Shown here: one piece after another, positions 300 through 21,120 of the stretch
Layout: each line of letters begins with the position of its first letter
Position numbering within the stretch: position 1 is the stretch's first letter
Origin: Trichlorobacter lovleyi SZ
GTDB lineage: Bacteria > Desulfobacterota > Desulfuromonadia > Geobacterales > Pseudopelobacteraceae
Assembly: GCF_000020385.1 (NCBI RefSeq)
Contig: NC_010814.1
Span: 3,840,001-3,872,000, forward strand
Direction: 5' to 3'
Length of the DNA stretch: 32,000 nt
Position numbers and translations under genes: made by a program
The notes under the pieces: model-generated
Told to the model about the DNA's origin: nothing
What the model saw: the letters and a program-made list of their open reading frames with translations, nothing else
Database searches by the model: none

Positions 300-2210
300 T
301 TACCTGCCGCGCAGCACCCGCTTGTCCCCGATCCGTATGGTTATTTTGCGGCTGTCAAAATACTCCAGCAACGGAATCATGAACTTGCGAGACAGGCCGG
401 TCAGCTCGCGGAACTCTGACGGAATAATCTCTGCCTTGGCCCTCAGATGCGAAATCAGCTTTTCTTCAATGGTTTTAAGCAAAGCGCTGTCGTAGAAGAT
501 GTCACCCGAGACCCGCGTCACCCCTCCTTCGCGGGTCAGCAGGGCCAGGTGATCCCGCACCTCTTTTTCGGTGCTGCGCAGTGCCTCGGCCAGCTCCTTG
601 ATGGTAGGTGGTTCAATCCCCCGTTCTGCCAACAGCCTGGCGATACCGGCGCCAAGCCCGGACAACGGCGCCGCCGCCTGTTTTCTGGCACCTGCAGGAC
701 GGACCAGCTCCCGTTCGGCGGCCAGCTTGCCTTCCTTTTCCAGCTCTGCCAGCAGCGGGGCGAAGAAACGCTGGTCACTGCGCCTGGGTATCCGGGTCTT
801 TAACTCTTCCTTGCTGATCCCCTCTTTAAGTGGATTGGCCGCAAGGTAGCCCGACAGCTCATCCAACAGCAGCTGCTTCAGGCCGTGAACCGCAGACCTG
901 GACAGAAAGACCCGCGGTTCACGAGTCATCTGCACAATCTCGCCAGCCGCCAACAATCCCTGTAAGGCAGTCTCAGCCTGCTTACGGGCAATACCGGAAC
1001 GCAACACGATCTCATCAAACGAGACGCCGGACAGCAGGGCCTGGGACACGATCAAATTGCAGGTTTTCTGATGTTCTGCCGCATCCAGCGACACCAGCAA
1101 CCGCAGGGCATCGTCACTGCGCCGCCGCCGGGCCGGAGGAAACGGGTCAAGCACGATGCCGCCACCGATAGTGACCGAGGGTGAAGTGGCCCGGATCAGG
1201 TAGGGATCTCCTGACACCAGCAACAGCGGTTGATCCAGCCGTAACTGGGCATAGCCGCTCTGGCCCGGCGGCAGTGCATCATGTTCCAGCAGGATGATCT
1301 GGGCCGTAACCTCTGAGGTGCCTGAATGGAAGCGAACCGTGGTGCGATGCCGCAGATCCCGCGGAGCCGAGGCCAGATGATCCAGCCGCACATCCACCCG
1401 ACGGCTGGTGCGGAAGATCCCAGTTGGGACCACTACATCACCCCGATGGGCCTGATCCAGATCGATCCCCTGCAGGTTTACGGCCAGTCGCTGACCGGCC
1501 TGGCCGATGTCGGTCTTTGCACCATGGGCCTGAATCCCCCGCACCCGGCCCGGAATCCTGTCGGGCAGCAGTTCCAGTTCGTCACCCAGCTTGATCTCAC
1601 CGGCCAGCAGCGTGCCGGTAACCACGGTGCCAAAACCAGCCACCGTAAAGACCCGATCAACCGGCAGCCGGAAGGCGCCATCCCGTTTCTTCTCTGCCGT
1701 CCCTTCAGCCAGCCGGACCAGTTCTGCCTTCAGATCATCCAGACCGGCACCGGTTTTGGAGGAAACCGGAATGATCGGGGCGGTCTCAAGAAAGGTACCG
1801 GCCACAAACTCCCGCACCTCTTCCTGCACCAGCGGCAGCCAGTCCGGCTCCACCATATCTGACTTGGTCAACGCCACCAGACCGCTATGCACCCCCAACA
1901 GACGCAGGATATCCAGGTGTTCACGGGTCTGGGGCATAATCCCCTCATCCGCCGCAATCACCAGCATCACCAGATCCATACCGGCCACACCGGCCACCAT
2001 GGCCCGCACGAACTTCTCATGGCCCGGCACATCCACCACGCCGAACTCGATCCCACCGGGCAGCTCAAGGTGGGCAAAACCCAGCTCAATCGTGATGCCG
2101 CGGGCCTTCTCTTCCTTGAGCCGGTCGGTGTCGGTACCGGTCAGCGCCTTAACCAGTGAGGTCTTGCCGTGGTCAATATGTCCGGCTGTGCCGAGGATCA
2201 GGTGTTTCAT
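300..2210 (-). CDS. selB: selenocysteine-specific translation elongation factor SelB
   Basis: 636-aa ORF. GTPase motifs AGHIDHGKT, DVPGH and TKSD, EF-Tu-like domains, and the long C-terminal winged-helix extension typical of bacterial SelB. The start overlaps the upstream gene's stop by 4 nt. Confidence 0.95.
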   Translation of the reverse strand: MKHLILGTAGHIDHGKTSLVKALTGTDTDRLKEEKARGITIELGFAHLELPGGIEFGVVDVPGHEKFVRAMVAGVAGMDLVMLVIAADEGIMPQTREHLDILRLLGVHSGLVALTKSDMVEPDWLPLVQEEVREFVAGTFLETAPIIPVSSKTGAGLDDLKAELVRLAEGTAEKKRDGAFRLPVDRVFTVAGFGTVVTGTLLAGEIKLGDELELLPDRIPGRVRGIQAHGAKTDIGQAGQRLAVNLQGIDLDQAHRGDVVVPTGIFRTSRRVDVRLDHLASAPRDLRHRTTVRFHSGTSEVTAQIILLEHDALPPGQSGYAQLRLDQPLLLVSGDPYLIRATSPSVTIGGGIVLDPFPPARRRRSDDALRLLVSLDAAEHQKTCNLIVSQALLSGVSFDEIVLRSGIARKQAETALQGLLAAGEIVQMTREPRVFLSRSAVHGLKQLLLDELSGYLAANPLKEGISKEELKTRIPRRSDQRFFAPLLAELEKEGKLAAERELVRPAGARKQAAAPLSGLGAGIARLLAERGIEPPTIKELAEALRSTEKEVRDHLALLTREGGVTRVSGDIFYDSALLKTIEEKLISHLRAKAEIIPSEFRELTGLSRKFMIPLLEYFDSRKITIRIGDKRVLRGR

Positions 2211-2530
2211 GGTTTGGTTCCGTTCAGATACTCCGCCAGGATCAGACGACTATGCTCATCATCATGACAGTAGACGCAGAGGTTTTCCCAGTTGCTGCCA
2301 TCCTTGGGGTTGTTGTGGTGATTGCCGTCCTTGTGGTGGACCGTCAGCAGCTGCAGGTTTTCACGTTCAAACTCGCGGCCACACTTGGCGCAGATCCAGC
2401 CATGAATCTTGAGGGACTGTTCGCGGTAGTTGGCATTGGTTGGCTTGTTGTCCGTTTTCAACTGGTTAACCAGCTGACTGAGCGCCTCGGCAGAAGGGAG
2501 TTTGCGGGATTGGGGCCGACGCGGGGGCAT
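2207..2530 (-). CDS. YajD-like HNH nuclease-family protein
   Basis: 107-aa ORF with WICAKCG ... TVHHKDGNHHNNP ... NWENLCVYCHDDEH, the CxxC/HH/N/CxxH pattern of small YajD-type HNH proteins. Confidence 0.85.
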   Translation of the reverse strand: MPPRRPQSRKLPSAEALSQLVNQLKTDNKPTNANYREQSLKIHGWICAKCGREFERENLQLLTVHHKDGNHHNNPKDGSNWENLCVYCHDDEHSRLILAEYLNGTKP

Positions 2531-2532
2531 GG

Positions 2533-3240
2533 TCAGACCCCGCTGCGGGAAAAGCGGTAGCCGACGCCGCGCACGGTCAGGAAGTGGGTCGGACGGGTCG
2601 GATCAGGTTCAAAGTATTTACGCAGCCGCACGATAAAGTTGTCCAGGGTGCGGGTCTCGGTGTCGGAGCTGTAGCCCCAGACCGACTCCAGCAGCTCGCC
2701 TCGGGGGATCACCTGGCCTTCGCGCTGGAAGAAGAGCGCCAGCACCCGCACCTCCATCTCGGTCAGGTCGATCTCGCCCTGGGCGGTCTTGGCCCGGTAG
2801 GAGAGCAGGTAGACCTCGTTGACACCGAACTGGTAGCCCTCCTCCACCGGATCAGGGCGATACCAGGAGGAACGCCGCAGCATCCCTTTGACCCGCAGCA
2901 GGAACTCGGCCAGGTTGAACGGTTTGGTCAGGTAGTCATCGGCGCCGGATTCCAGGCCGCTGACCCGGTCCACATCCTCGGAGCGGGCGGTCAGCATCAG
3001 GATCGGCACCCGTGAATCAAGCTCCCGCATCGCCTTGCAGACCTGAAAACCATCCATGCCGGGCAGCATCACATCCAGGATGATCAGGTCACAGCGTTCC
3101 ACCCGCAACGCCTCCAGTGCCGTTTCGCCCCGGTCAAAATGACTGACCGCATAGCCGTCCTGTTCCAGGTTAAAACAGATTCCCCGGGCCAGGTGCAGCT
3201 CATCCTCCACCAGCATGATACGTGGTTTGTCATCACTCAT
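2533..3240 (-). CDS. OmpR/PhoB-family response regulator (no kinase gene adjacent)
   Basis: Receiver domain (MLVEDE, ILDVMLPGMDG, LTKP) plus winged-helix output (LTVRGVGYRF). ATG at 3240 overlaps the permease stop by 8 nt (ATGAGTGA). The ORF track's longer start at 3255 is possible. Confidence 0.92.
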   Translation of the reverse strand: MSDDKPRIMLVEDELHLARGICFNLEQDGYAVSHFDRGETALEALRVERCDLIILDVMLPGMDGFQVCKAMRELDSRVPILMLTARSEDVDRVSGLESGADDYLTKPFNLAEFLLRVKGMLRRSSWYRPDPVEEGYQFGVNEVYLLSYRAKTAQGEIDLTEMEVRVLALFFQREGQVIPRGELLESVWGYSSDTETRTLDNFIVRLRKYFEPDPTRPTHFLTVRGVGYRFSRSGV

Positions 3241-5016: not shown

Positions 5017-5394
5017 TTACGGCTTAAAGACCTTCAGCTCCAACTCTTTGATCACCTTGAAATGTTTGGCGTTGCTGGAAGACAATACCATACCGTTTTC
5101 CGTGGCGGTTGCGGCAATGATGGCATCACCGGCCCGCATGCCGGACGATAGTCCGTACTCTTCCACATAGACCAACGCCCGGTGGCCGATATTCTCTGTC
5201 AACGGCAGGACGGTAAAGCGGAAATCAGCAATAAAACGCTTGATCAGGCGATGCTGTTGTTTATCCTTGGCGCACTGCAGCAGCTCCATGTACGTCTGTA
5301 CAGACAGAAAGCGCTCTTTGGCCGACTCCATCAAGGCCGCAGCCCTGGCATTGCCCCGCTGGACCCAGATGAAGATGTCCGTATCAAAGATCAT
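5017..5394 (-). CDS. vapC: PIN-domain toxin (VapC family)
   Basis: 125-aa ORF starting MIFDTDIFIW, with acidic residues spaced as in PIN domains. Overlaps the upstream antitoxin gene by 11 nt. Local GC is lower than in the neighbours. Confidence 0.85.
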   Translation of the reverse strand: MIFDTDIFIWVQRGNARAAALMESAKERFLSVQTYMELLQCAKDKQQHRLIKRFIADFRFTVLPLTENIGHRALVYVEEYGLSSGMRAGDAIIAATATENGMVLSSSNAKHFKVIKELELKVFKP

Positions 5395-6488: not shown

Positions 6489-7488
6489 GCTTGGCCACCT
6501 TCCCGCCCCGGCCTGAACGGCCCAGAAACAGCACCAACAGGCATAATTCCACCACGCCAAAGGCGATCTTGACACTGTAGGGCAGTACCGGCTCATGGTA
6601 CTGGGAAAAGAACGCCTCCACAATACCGGCCCAGACCAGCATCAGCGCCACCCCGCCGATCAGGGTGGTCAGATCTCCCCAGACCAGCCGCATACGGGCC
6701 ACCAGAGTCAGGCCGCTGCCTTTGCCGATCAGGGTTGTTGCCAGCACCAGACCGGCCTGCCCGGCGATCAGGATAGCCGGTATCTCAATCACCCCGTGGG
6801 GCAGCAGCCAGCCAGCCAGGAAGATCCCCTGCCCGGCAGCCAGGTAATCCAGCACCACCGCCCCCAGAATCACGCCGTTGTAGAACAGCAGGATGATGGT
6901 CCCCACCCCCCAGGTCATGCCGGTGGCCATGCAGGCGATGGAGACCTGTGTGTTGTGGGTCATCAGGCTGCTGGAGAAGGTGGCCTTGTGACCGGCCAAC
7001 CGCTTGCCGGCCTCCTGCTCTTCTTTGGCCACCCGCTCCGCTGGTGAGCCATGCAGATGATCAAACGGCAGCAGCATCCCCTTTTCTTCCGGGGCAACCA
7101 TCAGCACAGCTGCGCCAAAGATCGCCCCAACAATGGTGATCAGCACGGCCAGTTGAAACTGACGGATGTAGCGCCTGAAGGTTTGGGGAAAGGTCTCCTG
7201 CAGCCAGGTGCGGGGCGCCAGACGATGGGCGTTGTCTCTGGTTGAGTGGATCTCGCCATAGGCCCGGGCCACCAGACTTTCCAGGTAGCGACGGAACTCA
7301 AGCGGGGCTGCCAGACCATCAAGCCGGGCCAGACCGGCGCTGGCCCGCTGGTAGAGGTAGTGAAAACGGACAGCGCCGTCAACCCCCAGCCTGCAGGCCG
7401 GATCATCTTCCACCCGTTTCAGCAACCGCTCCAGCTCGTCCCAGAACGGCTTTTCCGCTGCGGTAAATCGCTCCAGATCGATGATCAT
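6481..7488 (-). CDS. SpoIIM-like (DUF95) integral membrane protein
   Basis: 335-aa ORF with a soluble N-terminal helical region followed by about 6 TM helices and the HGVIEIPAILIAG motif of the stage II sporulation protein M family. ATGA overlap with the DUF58 gene. Confidence 0.75.
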   Translation of the reverse strand: MIIDLERFTAAEKPFWDELERLLKRVEDDPACRLGVDGAVRFHYLYQRASAGLARLDGLAAPLEFRRYLESLVARAYGEIHSTRDNAHRLAPRTWLQETFPQTFRRYIRQFQLAVLITIVGAIFGAAVLMVAPEEKGMLLPFDHLHGSPAERVAKEEQEAGKRLAGHKATFSSSLMTHNTQVSIACMATGMTWGVGTIILLFYNGVILGAVVLDYLAAGQGIFLAGWLLPHGVIEIPAILIAGQAGLVLATTLIGKGSGLTLVARMRLVWGDLTTLIGGVALMLVWAGIVEAFFSQYHEPVLPYSVKIAFGVVELCLLVLFLGRSGRGGKVAKRG

Positions 7489-8819
7489 AGCAGTTGTTTC
7501 CGTTTCACATCCAGGTAGTGGGAGACCAGATCCGCGCTCAACCGTTCATCCTTTACCAGCATGAGCCTGACCCCTTGCAGACGAAGACTCTGCTGCAGTT
7601 CCCGCAGTTGATGCCAGGTCAGGTGCCCGGCCAGATGGCGATAGAGTTCATCATTGCTCTGCAGGGTGGCAGTGCTGAACAGCGGGGCAGCCGTGGGCGG
7701 TTGCGGCATGGCAACGCAGATCAGGTGGCGGGACAGGATACGGATGGCCCTGACAAAATCCTCGGCCAGGGCCGGTTCATCCAGCGGTGCGATAAAGATC
7801 AGCAGGGCTCGCCGACGCAGACGGGCAGCCATGAAGGTGGCCAGTTCAGCAAAGGAGGGGTTGTCTTCACCAGGCTGCACCGTGTAGAGCAGGTCGCGGC
7901 AGTGGCCAAAGTGGGTCTTGCCGGTCTTGGCCCGCACAAAGCCCTGTACCCGGCTGCCAAAGGCGGCCACCCCGAACAGATCTCCCTGGCGCTGGGCCAC
8001 TGACCCCAGGATCAGGGCGGTACGCACCGCCTGCTCAAGAAACGGTTCACTGCCCCCTTCAGCAGTGGGTACCGGCCGACCGCTGAGCCGGGAACTGTCG
8101 ATCAGCAGGTAGACCTCCTGGGTCCGTTCAATCTGATACTCTTTGGTGATCAGCTGACGACGTTTGGCCGTTGCCTTCCAGTGGATATCCCCCAGACTGT
8201 CGCCGGTCTGATACTGACGCAGCCGATCAAACTCCCGTCCCTGGCCCCGCTGACGCTGGGCTTGCAGTTGCCGGTCATTGCGTTCCAGAAACAGACTTGC
8301 CAGACGACGGCGTTCTGCCCGCAGGTTGGGATAGACCCGCAGTTCCGTGCTGATGGTGTGACGGATCTGCAGCTGCCACAAGCGAAAGGGAGAAGCGACC
8401 CGCAAAGAACACTGCATGACCTGAAACCTGCCCCGTTTGGTGCCGGTCAGGGACCAGTCCAGGCAGACCGCATCACCACCTTTGGCCAGCTTCAAGCGGG
8501 TCTCCCTGAAGGGCGATACAAAACCGGCGGGCAGTGCCAGCCCCACCTGCAGGTCAAAGCCAGCCTGATTGCTAGCCTGGATGGTTATCCCCAACTGGCC
8601 GGCCCGACCGCAGACCAGCGACAAACGCGGGGGGGCCGTAACGGTCAACCGGTTGCGGTAGCGGAACAAAATCAGCAGATCAGCAAGCGCAACCATCCCC
8701 ACCAGCAACGGCACAAACAGCAGCAGCGGCCGGAACTGGGGGGTAACCGCATACAGCAGCGCAGCCGGAATCAGGGTGGCGGCAACAAGCCGCAGTATGG
8801 CCGGGGCCGGGATGATCAC
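7485..8819 (-). CDS. DUF58 (vWA-like) protein
   Basis: 444-aa ORF with two N-terminal TM helices and the signature GREFDRLRQYQTGDSLGDIHWKATAKRRQLITKEY followed by a vWA-like fold. ATGA overlap with the MoxR gene. Confidence 0.85.
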   Translation of the reverse strand: MIIPAPAILRLVAATLIPAALLYAVTPQFRPLLLFVPLLVGMVALADLLILFRYRNRLTVTAPPRLSLVCGRAGQLGITIQASNQAGFDLQVGLALPAGFVSPFRETRLKLAKGGDAVCLDWSLTGTKRGRFQVMQCSLRVASPFRLWQLQIRHTISTELRVYPNLRAERRRLASLFLERNDRQLQAQRQRGQGREFDRLRQYQTGDSLGDIHWKATAKRRQLITKEYQIERTQEVYLLIDSSRLSGRPVPTAEGGSEPFLEQAVRTALILGSVAQRQGDLFGVAAFGSRVQGFVRAKTGKTHFGHCRDLLYTVQPGEDNPSFAELATFMAARLRRRALLIFIAPLDEPALAEDFVRAIRILSRHLICVAMPQPPTAAPLFSTATLQSNDELYRHLAGHLTWHQLRELQQSLRLQGVRLMLVKDERLSADLVSHYLDVKRKQLL

Positions 8820-9781
8820 CGGGGAACCGTGACCTCCTGCAGGATTGAACCGATCACCTCACCAGGGGTCAGCCCCTCGATCTCGTAATCTGGCTGCAGA
8901 ATCAGGCGATGCTCCAGCACCGGCAAGGCCATCATCTTGATATCATCCGGGGTAATGAAGTCACGGCCTGCCACGGCAGCAGCAGCCCGGGCAGCCAGGA
9001 TCAGCGACTGTGAGGCACGGGGACCACCCCCCAGCAGCACGGCATGATGGCTGCGGGTGGCCCGCACCACCTCCAGGGCATAGGCGGCAATCTCATCCTG
9101 CACCACCAGCGTCATCAAGGCCTGCCGCAGGGTTACCAGATCATCGGCACTGATCACACAACGGACCGTATCACCGGCCAGCACCGTCTCCGGCGCATCG
9201 CTCCCCAGGGTACGCCGCACCAGGGCCAGCTCCTCTTCGCGGGTCGGCGGCGGCATGGTGATCTTCAGCATGAAGCGGTCCTTCTGGGCCTCCGGCAACG
9301 GGTAGGTCCCTTCAAACTCCACCGGGTTCTGGGTGGCAAAGACCGTAAAACTGGCAGGCAGGTTGTAGCTCTTGCGGTCAATGGTCACCAGCCGTTCCTG
9401 CATGGCCTGCAGCAGGGCAGACTGGGTCTTGGACGGGGCGCGGTTGATCTCATCGGCCAGCAGGAAGTTGCAGAAGATCGGGCCGGGGTTGAGCACAAAC
9501 TCGTTTTCCTTCATGTTGAAGATGTTTGAGCCGGTGATGTCGGTAGGCATCAGGTCCGGGGTGAACTGAATCCGGGAAAAACGGCCGCCCACCACCTTGG
9601 CCAGGGTCCGCACCAGCAGGGTCTTACCGATCCCCGGCACCCCTTCAATCAGGGCATGTTGCCCGGTCAGCAGCGCCACCAGCACCCGGTCAATCACCTC
9701 ATGCTGGCCGATGATCACCTTACCCAGCTCTCCCTTTAACGCCTGTACCACTGCGATCAACTGTTGCAACCCCTGGTTCAT
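8816..9781 (-). CDS. MoxR-family AAA+ ATPase
   Basis: 321-aa ORF. Walker A GVPGIGKT, Walker B LLADEINRA, and the sensor region VFATQNPVEFEGTYPLPEAQKDRF diagnostic of MoxR. Confidence 0.95.
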   Translation of the reverse strand: MNQGLQQLIAVVQALKGELGKVIIGQHEVIDRVLVALLTGQHALIEGVPGIGKTLLVRTLAKVVGGRFSRIQFTPDLMPTDITGSNIFNMKENEFVLNPGPIFCNFLLADEINRAPSKTQSALLQAMQERLVTIDRKSYNLPASFTVFATQNPVEFEGTYPLPEAQKDRFMLKITMPPPTREEELALVRRTLGSDAPETVLAGDTVRCVISADDLVTLRQALMTLVVQDEIAAYALEVVRATRSHHAVLLGGGPRASQSLILAARAAAAVAGRDFITPDDIKMMALPVLEHRLILQPDYEIEGLTPGEVIGSILQEVTVPR

Positions 9782-10947
9782 CGTCCTGTCCTCTCTGCCC
9801 GCAGCCGGGCTATCCGCTGATACCGGGTAACCGGATCATCCTGCGCGGTCATTGCATCGCTTAACTCTTTGCGCAACTCTGCATCCTGCTGTAACTCACG
9901 TTTAAAACTCTTCTGCCATTCCTGACAGCAGACCTTCAGCAGCTGATTGGCCGGAATACTCCGTTGCAGCAGGTTCACCAGACCGCTGAAGCTGTCATGG
10001 CTCACCCCGACGGCCGGATCACGGGATGCCACAGCACCAGCCGGGTTCAGGGGGATTGACTGCTGCCAGATATAGAGCCCTGCCATCATCAGCAGCACCC
10101 CGATCAGCGGCAGCAGGCCAAAACGGCGGGCCAGCGCCATGATGCCGCCCTGCTCACTCACCCCAAGATGGAATTCATCAAAGATAATCCTGTGCTGCTC
10201 ACCCAGCAGCCAGGCCAGCAGCGCTGCCTGACGGTCTGCCTTGAGTGCCTCGTTACTGAAGAGGGAGCTGTCTGACACCAGCACCAGACTGCCGCTGCCG
10301 ATGCTGCGTTCCAGTACCACCGCCTTGCCATCAACGGCATAGATGGTACGCCAGCCGGTGGGTGGCGGCTGCAGGGTCAGGCGGGACAGCAGGCGGATCT
10401 CTGCCGACAGGGCCAAACCAGGTTCAGTCAGGTTCGCCTTGATCAGTTGCTTGTCAGGAGCAGACTCTGATACGGGCAGGTAGCCTGCACTGATGCCCCA
10501 GGCGGTATCCGGTGCTTTAACTGCCTTTGGTGTCTTTGCATCAGCAGGTTTTGGTGCCGGCACAGGTCTACACTCCGGCACGGTGATGACCGGATTGAAG
10601 GCAACCACCACCCGGTTCCCAGCCGCAACCAGCTGATCGACCTCGGCAATCTCTTGCTTATCAGCAGTCGTCAGCTCGTGGTGCTGGTTTCCCAGCAGCA
10701 GGATCGTGCTTGCGGTTACCTTCTGATTGGCCAGAGAGCGGTAATTGCGCTCCACCTTGACCCCGCCGGTACGCTCCAGGGCCTGGTACAGCGCCATGCT
10801 TCCCAAGGGATCGCTGCGCAGGGATGAACCTGCCGGAAAGATATCCCCGGCTTCAAAACGCAAGGCAAAGAGCTGGTAGAGGGAGGCAGCCGCCAGAACC
10901 AGCAACAGGCAAAAGGTGAGGATCAGCAGTTTACTGCGTGCGGACAT
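9778..10947 (-). CDS. DUF4350-like membrane-anchored protein
   Basis: N-terminal TM anchor (KLLILTFCLLLVLAAASLY), a large extracytoplasmic domain, a second TM helix near residue 290 and a C-terminal tail. Position between the DUF4129 and MoxR genes matches the conserved neighbourhood. Start at ATG 10947 (ORF track gives 10998). Confidence 0.6.
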   Translation of the reverse strand: MSARSKLLILTFCLLLVLAAASLYQLFALRFEAGDIFPAGSSLRSDPLGSMALYQALERTGGVKVERNYRSLANQKVTASTILLLGNQHHELTTADKQEIAEVDQLVAAGNRVVVAFNPVITVPECRPVPAPKPADAKTPKAVKAPDTAWGISAGYLPVSESAPDKQLIKANLTEPGLALSAEIRLLSRLTLQPPPTGWRTIYAVDGKAVVLERSIGSGSLVLVSDSSLFSNEALKADRQAALLAWLLGEQHRIIFDEFHLGVSEQGGIMALARRFGLLPLIGVLLMMAGLYIWQQSIPLNPAGAVASRDPAVGVSHDSFSGLVNLLQRSIPANQLLKVCCQEWQKSFKRELQQDAELRKELSDAMTAQDDPVTRYQRIARLRAERTGR

Positions 10948-12571
10948 CGCTGGTGATCCTCCGGTGGTTATCCAGGTAACTGCGAACAGTCTCGTCATCC
11001 GGCAGGTGCATACCGTACCAGGCTGCCTCGAAGATCCGCAGGTTCAGAGAAAACGCCTCGCTTAACCGGGGCATGGCATGGCTGAAGCGGAGCAGTTCCC
11101 GCTCGTAGTCGTGGTTGGTCTTGCAGCGGGCGATAGTCACCAGCTTTGCATCAGCCAGGGCAGCCAGGGTGGCCAGGTACAACGCCCGCAGCCCCAGACG
11201 CAGCTCTCCCTTTTCCAGCAGCTCCCGGGCCAGGGCCAGCCAGCGTTCTTCGGTCAGTTCACTGGCAATCACCGATTCATCGTGGAGATCAGGCGCCACC
11301 TGCAGGGTGTGCATCGGCAGTTCTGCTTCCGGTTCAGGGGTGCGACGCAGTCGACGCCAGGCAAAGACCGCGCCAAAGCAGAGCAACAACGCCAGCAGGA
11401 GATACATCAGCAGCAGCGCGATGTCTGAAAAACTGCCGCCCCAGCCAGGTTTCACCCCGGAAAATGACGGCTTGGGCAGTTTTTTAAACAGCCACTTGAT
11501 GGCATCACCGATCCAGCCTCCCACTGTAACCGCAGTATCCTGAATCCAGGTAATGATGGACTGCATGAAACCTGGCAGCTCCCTCTTTTCCAGCTGGTGG
11601 TGCTCCCGTGGCAGACGCCAGGCAAAACGGGGATCTTTGATCACCTGTTCAACAGAACGGTCAAGCCGGGCTGCGCGTTGCTGCAGCTGTTGTTGCGGTT
11701 CAACAACCGGCGCAGCAGCAAAAGCAGGCTGACTGCCGCAGATGACACAACTGAAAGCAACCAGAAGCACCGGCAGGGTTGCCCGTTCCGCAACCGTCTT
11801 GATCTGGGCCCGCAGATCAGCACCACTGGATAATGATTCTCCATAGTGACAGCGCAGCACGTAGCAGGCCTTGACCAGCGGATCAAGGCAGAGCTGGGTA
11901 AGCGCCACAATCGCAGCCCAGAAGGTGGAATTAAGCAGCATCCGGTTACTGCGGGTGAAGATGGTCTCAATCCCGAACAGGCTCTTGAGCAGGTGGGGCA
12001 GGAAGTAAACGCCAACCGCAATATTGGCAAACAGTACCAGAAAGACAAGTGACAACAGGGCCAGCAGCAGATGGTTCTGACCGGGCCAGAGCAGGGCCAG
12101 ACGGCGTGATTTGCGTTGCACGGTACGCCAGTCCGGGCCACCCGGCACGGTGATATTCTGGAAAAAGGCATAGCACCAGCCAAACGGCAGGGTTATCAGA
12201 GCGGCCAGCGGCAGGATGATAAAGCCCCAAGGCTGCAGCCCGCCCTGCACCATGACACTAGCGGTAACTGAAGGCAGCTCGGCAGCCCCCCCCAGTTGCA
12301 TCAGCAGACGACCACTGAAACGGCTTTGCCAGACCTTCATCCAGATGAACAGAAGCGACAGGGCCAGTGCCCCTCCGGCCAGCCGCTGATCTGCATCAGC
12401 GTTACGGCTCATATCAGCCCAGAACCAGAGCAGCACCAGCATAAACGGCACAGTGCCCAGATAATAACAGGCCAGGGTGTCCAGAGGAGCCTGGCGCAGC
12501 AGGGCGGTGGCCTGCTCCAGCAGCTCTACAGCCCCGATCCCTTTTTCACGGCTTCTGGGGCGCAGGATCAT
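10931..12571 (-). CDS. polytopic membrane protein with C-terminal DUF4129-like domain
   Basis: 546-aa ORF with about 6 N-terminal TM helices, one late TM helix, then a C-terminal helical domain (RALYLATLAALADAKLVTIARCKTNHDYEREL ... FEAAWYG) resembling DUF4129. ATGA overlap with the upstream gene. Confidence 0.6.
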   Translation of the reverse strand: MILRPRSREKGIGAVELLEQATALLRQAPLDTLACYYLGTVPFMLVLLWFWADMSRNADADQRLAGGALALSLLFIWMKVWQSRFSGRLLMQLGGAAELPSVTASVMVQGGLQPWGFIILPLAALITLPFGWCYAFFQNITVPGGPDWRTVQRKSRRLALLWPGQNHLLLALLSLVFLVLFANIAVGVYFLPHLLKSLFGIETIFTRSNRMLLNSTFWAAIVALTQLCLDPLVKACYVLRCHYGESLSSGADLRAQIKTVAERATLPVLLVAFSCVICGSQPAFAAAPVVEPQQQLQQRAARLDRSVEQVIKDPRFAWRLPREHHQLEKRELPGFMQSIITWIQDTAVTVGGWIGDAIKWLFKKLPKPSFSGVKPGWGGSFSDIALLLMYLLLALLLCFGAVFAWRRLRRTPEPEAELPMHTLQVAPDLHDESVIASELTEERWLALARELLEKGELRLGLRALYLATLAALADAKLVTIARCKTNHDYERELLRFSHAMPRLSEAFSLNLRIFEAAWYGMHLPDDETVRSYLDNHRRITSDVRTQ

Positions 12572-17110: not shown

Positions 17111-18028
17111 CTAATCCCTCGGTACAGCAAGCATTTTATCCAGTGCAGCTTTCGCCTTGATCCTGACATCGTCTGCAACGGTCACCACCGGCTGCATGGT
17201 CTGCAATGCCAGCAGGATATCTTCCAGTGAGGTCAGCTTCATGTTGGGGCAGATCAATGCAGGGGAGGCCAGCACAAACTCCTTGTCCGGGTTATCCTCC
17301 CGTAGCTTGAAGAGAATCCCGGCCTCGGTGCCGATGATAAACTTTTTAGCAGGACTCTTGGCACAATAGAGGTACATACCGCTGGTAGAGCAGACGTGAT
17401 CTGCCAGAGCCGAAACCTCCGGGGCGCATTCCGGGTGACAGATGAACAGGGCATCGGGGTGGGCGGCCTTGATCTCCCGCACTCTGGCAGCAGTCAGACG
17501 TTCATGGGTTGGACAGTAGCCCTCCCAGTAGATAAATTCCTTGTCCGGCAGCTGTTTGGCGATCCAGCGCCCCAGGTTGCGGTCCGGAGCAAAGATCAGT
17601 TTCTGCTCACTCAGAGAACGTACCACCGAGACCGCATTGGCGGAGGTGCAACAGATATCCGATTCGGCCTTGACCGCTGCCGACGAGTTGACATAGGTCA
17701 CCACCGGCAGACCGGGATGCTGAGCCTTCAGCGCCTGCAACCCGGTAACATCCACCATATCGGCCATGGGGCAGCCGGCATCGGCACGGGGCAACAGGAC
17801 GGTCTTGTGCGGCGAAAGAATTGCCGCGGACTCGGCCATAAAATGAACGCCGCAAAAGACGATCACGTCGGCATCGGTCTTGGCCGCCTCCATCGAGAGC
17901 TGCAGCGAGTCGCCGGTGATGTCGGCAATGGCCTGCACTTCGTCACGCATATAGTTGTGAGCCAGCAGCACGGCATTACGTTCCTTGAGCAGATGCCGGA
18001 TTTCAGTACGGATATCAGTAGTGGACAT
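17111..18028 (-). CDS. nadA: quinolinate synthase NadA
   Basis: 305 aa from ATG 18028 (GGAGGGGAC upstream). [20 protein letters not shown] and ICHPEC motifs. The ORF-track extension to 18169 is antisense to tRNA-Pro and I reject it. Confidence 0.95.
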
Positions 18029-18052
18029 GTCCCCTCCAGAGCGACTTGCCTG

Positions 18053-18081
18053 TTGACAAGCGCAGGAATAAAAAGTTATAA
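18053..18081 (+). promoter_or_regulatory. promoter of tRNA-Pro
   Basis: TTGACA (18053-18058), 17-nt spacer, TTATAA (18076-18081), ending about 10 nt before the tRNA 5' end. Confidence 0.55.
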
Positions 18082-18091
18082 AAATCATCTT

Positions 18092-18168
18092 CGGGATGTA
18101 GCGCAGTCTGGTAGCGCACCTGCTTCGGGAGCAGGGGGTCGCACGTTCAAATCGTGTCATCCCGACCA
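18092..18168 (+). tRNA. tRNA-Pro (anticodon CGG)
   Basis: CGGGATG/CATCCCG acceptor, D-arm GCGCAGTCTGGTAGCGC, anticodon arm CCTGC-TTCGGGA-GCAGG, T-arm GCACGTTCAAATCGTGT, and encoded A-CCA. Confidence 0.95.
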
Positions 18169-18180
18169 TCTAAATTCAAT

Positions 18181-20185: not shown

Positions 20186-20222
20186 GGTTGGTACCACCTC
20201 TTCGTTTTTTACAGAGTTGTGG

Positions 20223-20251
20223 ACTATAGTTAAAGCGGTCCACGACGTCAA
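20223..20251 (-). promoter_or_regulatory. sigma70 promoter of rplU-rpmA
   Basis: TTGACG (20251-20246), 17-nt spacer, TATAGT (20228-20223). Confidence 0.65.
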
Positions 20252-20295
20252 GCACTTTTTCTGATGGACAAATAAAAAACCGGAATGGCCTGCAA

Positions 20296-20436
20296 CTACG
20301 AGCAGCTACAGCTCTGCTGATCTTTATGGTACGAAAGCCGCACCCCGCACTTCTGGCACCGCCAGAAGAGGCCACCTCAGCCGGGCAGCAGGATCATCTT
20401 GCCGTTACATTCCGGACAGTCTTTTTCATTTTGCAT
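20296..20436 (-). CDS. candidate small selenoprotein: 46-codon zinc-ribbon ORF with in-frame TGA at 20377-20379
   Basis: AAGGAG, 6 nt, ATG (20436). Reads [19 protein letters not shown]-[TGA][29 protein letters not shown]. The CPEC...CQKC ribbon is complete only with read-through. A perfect hairpin CUUCUGGC-GGU-GCCAGAAG (20368-20350) starts 8 nt after the TGA. Confidence 0.45.
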
Positions 20437-20463
20437 CTGCGACTCCTTTTCCAAGTATAAAAG

Positions 20464-21120
20464 CTATGCAACCGTCACGCAAACACTGCCCACTCCGGCA
20501 ATACCGGCTTCCATCCGGTCTCCGGCCTGTACCCGGCCAACCCCGGCCGGTGTACCGGTCAGGATCACGTCCCCTTCTTCCAGAGTAAAAATACTGGACA
20601 GATAGCTGATGATCCTGGCCACGCTGTTGATCATCAGTCCGGTTGAGCCGTTCTGGCGCTGCTCACCATTCAAGCAAAGACAGATGGTAAGATTCTGGGG
20701 ATCTGTCACCTTGTCTGCCGGTACAAAATCAGATAACGGGCAGGAGGTATCAAAGCCTTTGGCTATCTCCCAGGGCAGCCCCTTTTTCTTCAGGTTGTCC
20801 TGCACGTCACGCAGGGTCATATCGATTGCCACACCGTAGCCGGCCACATGGGCAAGTGCATCTGCCTCGGCGATATCCTTACCTTCTACACCGATCAGCA
20901 CAGCCAGTTCTGCCTCATAGTGGCAGTCACTGCTGTAAGCCGGGATCACCACTGACTCACCGCTGTTGATTATCGCCGTGGCCGGCTTCATGAACACCAC
21001 CGGCGCAGACGGGGCTTCATTGCCCAGCTCTTTGATATGATCCACATAGTTACGACCAATACAGAGGATCTTGCCGACAATAAATTCGTTGTCTGTTGCA
21101 GGAATGGATACGGTTTTCAT
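20464..21120 (-). CDS. fumarylacetoacetate hydrolase (FAH) family protein
   Basis: 218-aa ORF. KILCIGRNYVDHIKE, VVFMKPATA, HYEAELAVLIG and ILTGTPAGVG are typical of the FAH / 2-keto-4-pentenoate hydratase fold. Confidence 0.9.
   Translation of the reverse strand: MKTVSIPATDNEFIVGKILCIGRNYVDHIKELGNEAPSAPVVFMKPATAIINSGESVVIPAYSSDCHYEAELAVLIGVEGKDIAEADALAHVAGYGVAIDMTLRDVQDNLKKKGLPWEIAKGFDTSCPLSDFVPADKVTDPQNLTICLCLNGEQRQNGSTGLMINSVARIISYLSSIFTLEEGDVILTGTPAGVGRVQAGDRMEAGIAGVGSVCVTVA

Follow-up and report, generated by a model that had tools for sequence, protein, structure and literature searches.

A predicted small zinc-ribbon selenoprotein of the Geobacteraceae with an in-frame UGA codon and an invariant SECIS-like hairpin

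A 46-codon gene of Trichlorobacter lovleyi SZ carries an in-frame UGA at codon 20 that very probably encodes selenocysteine (Sec), and the family to which the gene belongs is very probably a previously overlooked small selenoprotein, as predicted from sequence comparison, of the Geobacteraceae. We infer Sec decoding from a UGA that is retained in most related loci, from homologs with Cys at the same position, from a hairpin immediately downstream whose sequence is frozen in the UGA-containing forms, and from the presence of selB in the same window, where the window denotes the whole stretch of 32,000 nucleotides that was analysed (contig NC_010814.1, positions 3,840,001 to 3,872,000). The original prediction had described the gene as a candidate new selenoprotein. 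The designation as a predicted selenoprotein gained support (TGA in 92 of 111 loci, a Sec/Cys pair, and a frozen hairpin), while the word ‘new’ has to be qualified since NF041197, a family of NCBIfam, has the same spacing of its Cys and Sec residues.

The small gene sits between a gene for a FAH-family hydrolase and the ribosomal L21 (rplU-rpmA) operon. All coordinates that had been proposed for it were recovered on the minus strand, including those of the start codon, the 6-nt spacer, the TGA, and the terminal TAG (Table 1). The FAH-family gene does stop where it had been placed, with a TAG at 20466-20464. The Shine-Dalgarno motif AAGGAG is likewise present, but its stated distance of 27 nt from that stop is incorrect: 27 nt is the entire gap between the two genes, and AAGGAG begins 15 nt past the stop. 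GGAG- or GGAGG-like motifs were observed 5' of the ATG in 20 of the 20 genome loci displayed. When read through the UGA, the full frame forms CxxC-x16-CxxC, as had been claimed for the read-through product, and the 62 unique proteins with predicted Sec at the site (U forms) share the architecture of the window protein. Collectively, positions 20436-20296 represent a genuine 46-codon gene, and this gene probably shares a transcript with the upstream FAH-family gene.

Table 1. Features of the small gene, its surroundings, and selB in the window.
Feature	Positions	Strand	Remarks
selB, selenocysteine-specific elongation factor	300..2210	-	636 aa; Pfam GTP_EFTU, Beta-barrel_SelB, SelB-wing_2, SelB-wing_3
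Promoter-like TTGACG-17-TATAGT for the downstream rplU-rpmA operon	20223..20251	-	Conserved in L001, the contig of a metagenomic homolog; outside the small-gene unit, marks its 3' limit
Small selenoprotein CDS (predicted)	20296..20436	-	46 codons + TAG (20298-20296); in-frame UGA is codon 20
C-terminal Cys-x-Cys tail, C43-S-C45	20302..20310	-	
Second zinc knuckle, C27-Q-K-C30 (predicted)	20347..20358	-	C27 and C30 invariant; overlaps 3' arm of hairpin
SECIS-like hairpin CUUCUGGC-GGU-GCCAGAAG	20350..20368	-	Arms 20368-20361 / 20357-20350 (8 bp); loop GGU 20360-20358
UGA codon 20, proposed selenocysteine codon	20377..20379	-	Context PG-U-GG
First zinc knuckle, C7-P-E-C10 (predicted)	20407..20418	-	C7 and C10 invariant in alignment A5
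ATG start	20436-20434	-	Opens 46-codon frame
Shine-Dalgarno AAGGAG	20443..20448	-	6-nt spacer, then ATG
FAH-family (acylpyruvase-like) gene, immediately upstream	20464..21120	-	Pfam FAA_hydrolase E = 1.4e-64; 27-nt gap to small gene

One genome per prokaryotic species was scanned with two N-terminal patterns (M[QE]NEK[DE]CP and EC[NK]GKMIL). Because these patterns cover the N-terminal part of the protein only, neither the UGA nor anything downstream of it could influence which loci were found. It returned 19 loci, all from Geobacteraceae (Trichlorobacter thiogenes and MAGs of Trichlorobacter and Geobacter), and codon 20 was TGA in all 19, with the frame running on for 21-29 codons. Metagenomes scanned with protein-level patterns (FWRCQKC and CP[ED]C[KQN]G[KT]M) yielded 80 further loci. 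Over 107 loci, codon 20 was TGA in 92, Val in 13, and Ala in one, with one locus unscorable owing to a cut-off 5' end. These 107 loci collapse to 69 unique proteins, 62 of which are U forms, and comprise 72 unique TGA sequences. A profile search of a protein database also identified homologs with Cys (P0025 and P0027), Gly (P0030 and P0031), or Ala (P0023) at the site, and the Cys and Gly forms were verified on DNA as loci L107-L110. The tally over all 111 loci is thereby 92 TGA, 13 Val, 1 Ala, 2 Gly, 2 Cys, and 1 unscorable; Trp (TGG) was not found at codon 20 in any of the 111. Orthologs that all end at the equivalent codon had been named as a finding that would count against the prediction. 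Such a pattern was not observed, as 92 of the 111 loci keep the TGA and the frame downstream of it is conserved.

Both Cys loci have an FAH-family gene upstream. L107 has TGT at codon 20, an intact hairpin sequence, and an ECGCSN tail, and L108 has TGC at codon 20 and a degraded loop (CGG to CAA); L109 and L110 have GGT (Gly). The aligned Cys codons that the original prediction had proposed looking for therefore exist, and together with the TGA forms they constitute a genuine Sec/Cys pair, which is the criterion used in SECIS-independent searches for selenoproteins (PMC13188914). Only two Cys homologs were found. Homologs with Val, Ala, or Gly outnumber them, a pattern that selenoproteins do not usually show.

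The hairpin downstream of the UGA was found exactly as first described, namely as a perfect stem-loop. It overlaps codons L23-K29 and begins 8 nt past the UGA, which places the loop Gs 17-18 nt downstream of the UGA. Codons 23-29 read CTC TTC TGG CGG TGC CAG AAG in essentially all of the 72 unique TGA forms. Within the hairpin, 1/429 codons are minor synonymous ones, compared with 375/974 over the remainder of the gene and 125/359 when the same types of amino acid are considered; these contrasts were evaluated with Fisher tests that ignore shared ancestry, although the effect is extreme. Arg26, whose CGG codon gives the GG of the GGU loop, is CGG in 72/72 TGA forms. Among the Val and Ala forms, Arg26 is AGA or AGG in 5/7, abolishing the GGU loop, and the consensus hairpin codons are used just 28 of 40 times. 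Synonymous sites are thus frozen in the TGA forms only, which indicates that the hairpin is under selection at the RNA level.

The hairpin agrees with each of the four constraints of the published bSECIS model (PMC13188914): it has a 3-nt loop starting with GG, an 8-bp stem, 16 nt between UGA and loop (the lower limit of the model), and a folding energy of -10.9 kcal/mol for the hairpin alone. It is also compatible with a description of bacterial SECIS elements as having a stem of 6-8 bp and a conserved loop G about 20 nt after the UGA (PMC4605307). Perfect hairpins of at least 8 bp that agree with the bSECIS constraints follow only 5 of the 1207 TGA triplets in the window (0.4%). Two of these five share the hairpin described here, and the remaining matches lie in another frame or on the opposite strand, or represent a terminator.

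Folding energy in this G+C-rich sequence was unexceptional (-21.7 kcal/mol for a 51-nt region; z = -0.24 versus dinucleotide shuffles). Since this z-score is not significant, single-sequence thermodynamics was dropped as an argument, and the decisive support for the predicted hairpin is comparative. A lack of covariation had been named as a finding that would count against the prediction. No compensatory changes were detected because the stem never varies among the TGA forms, an outcome that speaks neither for nor against pairing. A lower stem conserved across the family was not found; one that pairs the UGA region with a downstream CUCA is available in some lineages only and was rejected as a family feature. 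Rfam returned nothing at E-values up to 10 in positions 20200-20500, which is neutral with respect to a SECIS since Rfam may hold no bacterial SECIS model. At gathering thresholds, the sole Rfam match in the whole window was tRNA-Pro, which is also the only tRNA in the window.

The selB gene that had been reported in the window is intact, with the full set of Pfam domains, and Geobacter species are known users of Sec (PMC1794560). Of the four genes selA, selB, selC, and selD, only selB falls within these 32 kb. Pfam annotation of the larger ORFs in the window identified no other gene of a selenoprotein-containing family. TGA is the commonest ordinary stop codon in the window, where it ends 13 of 24 large ORFs, and several members of the small-protein family themselves terminate in TGA; a reassigned genetic code is therefore excluded. 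The best surviving alternative to Sec is that the UGA is recoded to another amino acid, either through near-cognate insertion of Trp or Cys, which the hairpin would promote, or through a minor tRNA that reads UGA as Gly. UGA is the leakiest of the stop codons, two homologs have Gly at the site, and the flanks are Gly-rich. However, a hairpin that merely stimulates read-through would need no invariant loop, whereas the GGU loop is frozen on an 8-bp stem at a SelB-type distance in a genome segment that encodes SelB. This, the existence of the Sec/Cys pair, the lack of a Trp homolog among the related loci, and the role of TGA as the main ordinary stop in the window make such recoding unlikely.

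Under the preferred reading of UGA as Sec, a ribosome arriving at codon 20 would encounter SelB, the product of a gene in the same window, tethered by the mRNA hairpin. SelB would bring Sec-tRNA(Sec), and translation would proceed to the TAG. Sec would be placed at the Gly-rich tip of a β-hairpin between the knuckles C7/C10 and C27/C30, and the ribbon would be followed by a short, flexible tail that ends in CxC or CC.

The predicted structure is consistent with this placement. An AlphaFold model built from the homolog P0001 and two Val forms (mean pLDDT of 77.7) has strands at residues 13-19, 22-27, and 33-35, with residue 20 at the turn between the first two. Foldseek matched the model to the zinc ribbons of RPC10, Rpb9, and topoisomerase I, and to ZifS, with TMq of about 0.7 and E-values of 0.08 or worse; weak E-values are as expected for only 41 residues. 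Pfam zinc-ribbon matches for the small protein were all under their cut-offs. We interpret the product as a putative zinc ribbon of about 5 kDa in which two CxxC knuckles, predicted to bind zinc, clamp a β-hairpin.

The Cys-rich tail tracks the predicted Sec. The tail contains CC or CxC in 57/62 unique U forms versus 0/7 Val and Ala forms, and at least one tail Cys is present in 62/62 unique U forms. This suggests that Sec20 and the tail cysteines may act together. The FAH-family gene follows a similar distribution: U and Cys forms retain the FAH neighbor and U forms retain the tail, whereas Val, Ala, and Gly forms have neither. Most TGA loci and both Cys loci have the FAH-family gene as their immediate upstream neighbor in the same orientation, about 26-144 nt away, and the adjacency persists where FAH identity drops to 61-66%. 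The FAH-family gene adjoins none of the Val, Ala, or Gly forms, several of which are located beside DsbA/VKOR-like and YceG genes. Among the TGA loci without an upstream FAH-family gene, L043 and L050 have a CoA-disulfide reductase-like gene fused to a rhodanese domain, and L073 has an OsmC-like gene instead.

These associations invite speculation on function. An exposed selenol and the tail cysteines could form a selenylsulfide redox couple or an Se/S2 metal site, possibly serving the FAH-family enzyme. In a more specific version, which we consider doubtful, the Sec would not be a ‘better cysteine’ but an extra, solvent-exposed selenol at the tip of the zinc-ribbon hairpin, forming with the CxC tail an Se/S center that serves the FAH acylpyruvase-like enzyme. 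Such a center might work as a nucleophilic cofactor, as a relay through a selenylsulfide, or as a site for a soft metal. The ideas of an Se/S center and of an FAH partner derive from correlation within one bacterial family, in which FAH linkage may partly or simply reflect inherited synteny.

Genes 3' of the small gene are less constant. The rplU-rpmA operon is located there only in Trichlorobacter-like loci, and a tie to rplU-rpmA or to a ribosomal zinc-ribbon protein was rejected on these grounds and because L37ae scores are far under their cut-offs. With respect to taxonomic range, FAH proteins beside divergent members are named as Geobacter sp., Geobacteraceae bacterium GWC2_58_44, and relatives of G. 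metallireducens and G. benzoatilyticus, and the NCBI label of the Val forms is ‘Geobacteraceae bacterium’. Based on these source names, the small-protein family appears to be limited to the Geobacteraceae.

Insertion of Sec could also serve mainly to sense selenium, with the protein itself being minor and a leader-like ORF coupling selenium status to the expression of a neighboring gene. The ORF is indeed very short; it closes the FAH transcript on its 3' side and immediately precedes the rplU promoter. Yet the protein is strongly conserved (four invariant Cys, FWR, and the Cys-rich tail), homologs without a UGA persist as free-standing genes, and the downstream genes vary by lineage. We therefore consider a primary role in selenium sensing very unlikely.

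Synonymous variation around the UGA is informative as to whether the sequence beyond it is read as protein. Among the 72 unique TGA forms, four codons occur at each of Gly21, Gly22, and Gly31, six at Arg33, and both TGC and TGT at Cys30, with the residues unchanged; C7 and C10 also switch synonymously between TGT and TGC. Between the window and L001, synonymous differences flank the TGA (CCC/CCA, GGC/GGT, GGT/GGC, and GGC/GGA), unlike CTCTTCTGGCGGTGCCAGAAGTGCGG, in which the two do not differ. In addition, this same frame is an unbroken ORF in the Cys, Val, Ala, and Gly forms. This pattern is that expected of coding sequence and argues that the region 3' of the UGA is translated. It bears directly on the suggestion that the UGA is a true stop ending a 19-residue peptide, with an RNA element downstream that acts as a regulator of rplU-rpmA or as a terminator. 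The nucleotide-level conservation of a 20-nt core and the position of the gene just upstream of rplU in Trichlorobacter-like loci would suit an RNA element, but outside the hairpin it is the residues that are kept while codons vary, the Cys-rich tail has been conserved in the same frame, rplU is missing downstream of most TGA loci, and Rfam has no match. An untranslated RNA element is accordingly highly improbable.

When 5.8 billion proteins were searched, the sole homolog returned was P0001, which comes from a JGI metagenome and is printed with Trp at the UGA site. DNA of its contig (L001) has TGA at that codon, and the same applies to P0014, a second JGI protein and cluster mate of P0001 that is also printed with W. 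Because the DNA reads TGA, the W of both proteins is a translation artifact. Apart from these two JGI products, word-based searches of protein databases returned no TGA form as a protein. A sense codon such as TGG in close relatives had been named as evidence for a strain-specific nonsense mutation, and the Trp of P0001 might have been taken as such; this reading was rejected once the contig DNA was considered. A pseudogene of a small zinc-ribbon protein, with a TGA that arose by a nonsense mutation in this strain or by a sequencing error, is vanishingly improbable: although the only homolog in that search prints Trp and TGG is one transition from TGA, no locus has TGG, and 92 loci with 72 unique sequences have the TGA amid saturated synonymous change. 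More generally, the way in which a database renders UGA, here as W, can falsely ‘refute’ the identification of a selenoprotein.

Geobacter and Trichlorobacter serve as models of metal reduction and dechlorination, and their selenoproteomes have been catalogued repeatedly. Eight families were listed in 2006 (PMC1794560) and 13 selenoprotein genes for G. sulfurreducens in 2025 (PMC12013277). The small protein is absent from the family list of 2006 and from the sequence supplement of 2025 (PMC1794560; PMC12013277), and neither FWRCQKC nor PGUGG occurs in the literature and supplements that were searched. The family adds to these catalogs a conserved predicted selenoprotein that is invisible to standard gene callers, which miss it because they truncate the product to 19 residues; the NCBI annotation pipeline would presumably not rescue it, since its scores are below the NCBIfam cut-off. 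The unusual context of the predicted Sec (a hairpin tip, substitution by Val, Ala, or Gly, and a tail that tracks Sec) could inform our understanding of Sec use beyond CxxU motifs. The hairpin, as an apparently clean natural SECIS with 20 nt frozen across the family, may be a handy minimal element for studies of SelB binding and recoding.

The closest known counterpart in architecture is the NCBIfam entry NF041197, named ‘dual CXXC motif small (seleno)protein’. A 2026 review treats it as the same family as both OS_HP3 from Olavius symbionts and the ‘hypothetical protein DW’ that deep-Sep identified. OS_HP3 was described from the Olavius symbionts, in which data set it has no Cys homolog (PMC1976440), and hypothetical protein DW from Desulfosarcina (PMC12013277). 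Both the window family and NF041197 comprise proteins of about 50 residues predicted in Desulfobacterota, with an identical spacing of CxxC-x9-U-x6-CxxC-G. DW of Desulfosarcina sp. BuS5, which begins MDELKCIFCGKVAEIRGRUSNARVVCRSCG, has this spacing. Residues 7-37 of the window protein match profile positions 1-31 without gaps (residue 7 is position 1, as is residue 6 of DW), such that U20 falls in column 14, as does U19 of DW. NF041197 was the top NCBIfam match for every U-form member tested; for the single Val form scanned, L37ae was slightly better. Scores against NF041197 were 19.4-27.0 bits for 10 U-form members and 19.2 bits for the Val form, below the cut-off of 40, compared to 43.8 and 45.3 bits for DW proteins used as positive controls. 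The two also differ in that no member of the window family matches past profile position 32 of 53, with a CxC/CC tail in place of the C-terminal extension, and in that the Sec context is PG-U-GG in the window family and GR-U-[SA]N in NF041197. A search with the Desulfosarcina DW protein for members of NF041197 gave no candidates, and hhalign against DW, represented by two sequences only, gave a probability of 0.56% over 7 columns. Given this insignificant alignment, we claim the same spacing and not homology: the window family appears to share the architecture of NF041197, and common ancestry is not demonstrable from these sequences.

As an RNA element, the hairpin resembles the bacterial SECIS elements recognized by SelB (Escherichia coli fdhF, Moorella thermoacetica fdhA, and the bSECIS consensus) in lying within the coding sequence just past the UGA and in its 8-bp stem and small loop of GG followed by U, with a loop G about 20 nt from the UGA. 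It differs in that its 3-nt loop and 16-nt spacing fall toward the lower end of what the model allows and in that its sequence is invariant through a whole bacterial family. The E. coli fdhF element has a bulged U; none is evident in the window hairpin.

As a protein, the product finds its best structural matches (TMq of about 0.7) in the zinc ribbons of TFIIS/Rpb9/RPC10 and topoisomerase I. The functional residues of TFIIS-type ribbons occupy the tip of the inter-knuckle hairpin, which is where the Sec would sit in the window family. These ribbons have no significant sequence similarity to the window family, lack Sec, and belong to larger proteins or complexes. The zinc-ribbon selenoproteins of the FmdB family (TIGR02605, UxxU; PMC13188914), to which the window family has a trace match only, likewise combine a small zinc-ribbon scaffold with Sec. 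In the FmdB family, however, Sec replaces the metal-binding knuckle cysteines, whereas in the family described here all four Cys are kept and the predicted Sec is an additional residue at the tip.

Upstream neighbors of the small zinc-ribbon gene, a candidate selenoprotein gene, differed among the loci encoding its relatives. Where the codon aligned to the in-frame TGA specifies Val or Gly (loci L023-L025, L109, and L110), the FAH-family (acylpyruvase-like) gene did not adjoin the gene for the zinc-ribbon protein. The gene directly upstream at these loci, at a distance of about 36–153 nt, encoded a 335-aa membrane protein with weak matches to Thioredoxin_4 and DsbA-like domains, and thiamine genes and a radical-SAM gene also adjoined the small genes. 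At two TGA-form loci (L043 and L050), the same-strand upstream gene was likewise not FAH; it encoded a protein of ~565 aa similar to CoA-disulfide reductase or NADH oxidase bearing a rhodanese-like domain at the C-terminus, a possible clue to redox chemistry involving sulfur or selenium. At a further locus (L012), the ORF call yielded a single 718-aa frame that opens with GpmI sequence, continues through the FAH region, and stops 81 nt before the start of the small gene. This frame may represent a gpmI-FAH fusion or the loss of a stop codon in the L012 MAG.

In the window, two overlapping genes positioned between gpmI and the FAH gene resemble an MNT/HEPN toxin-antitoxin pair. They appear to have been inserted there, since the distance from gpmI to the small gene is 1423 nt here versus ~680 nt in most relatives. 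Elsewhere in the window, genes for RDD-family and SpoIIM-like membrane proteins flank the operon that comprises the MoxR, DUF58, DUF4350, and DUF4129 genes.

Features identified in the window, with positions and strand
Feature	Window position	Strand	Remarks
YajD-family HNH nuclease gene	2207-2530	-	abuts selB start
VapC-like PIN toxin gene	5017-5394	-	
DUF58 gene	7485-8819	-	operon 7485-12571
MoxR-type AAA ATPase gene	8816-9781	-	operon 7485-12571
DUF4350 gene	9778-10998	-	operon 7485-12571
DUF4129 gene	10931-12571	-	operon 7485-12571
tRNA-Pro(CGG)	18092-18168	+	opposite strand to 5' end of long ORF 17111-18169(-)
rplU promoter TTGACG-17-TATAGT and 5' leader ...CTCTGTAAAAAACGAAGAGG...	20186-20251	-	counterpart L001 3340-3405
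Nucleotidyltransferase (Polbeta/NTP_transf_2), 96 aa, and NTase-substrate-binding (HEPN-like), 133 aa	21160-21844	-	genes overlap

The N-terminal extension of the long ORF opposite the tRNA-Pro gene is probably spurious, because its NadA domain begins only at residue 56. The rplU promoter and 5' leader were near-identical between the window and the divergent contig L001, and the intergenic DNA around both was unalignable. The leader could be an unrecognized L21-operon leader; a search of Rfam returned no match for the promoter/leader segment.

Contig L001 also bears on how the in-frame codon of the small-gene family is recorded. Positions 3052-3054 of its DNA read TGA, and the JGI/IMG protein records P0001 (41 aa; encoded on L001) and P0014 (46 aa) print W for the family's in-frame TGA. 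Sec codons can therefore be concealed or misreported in database proteins.
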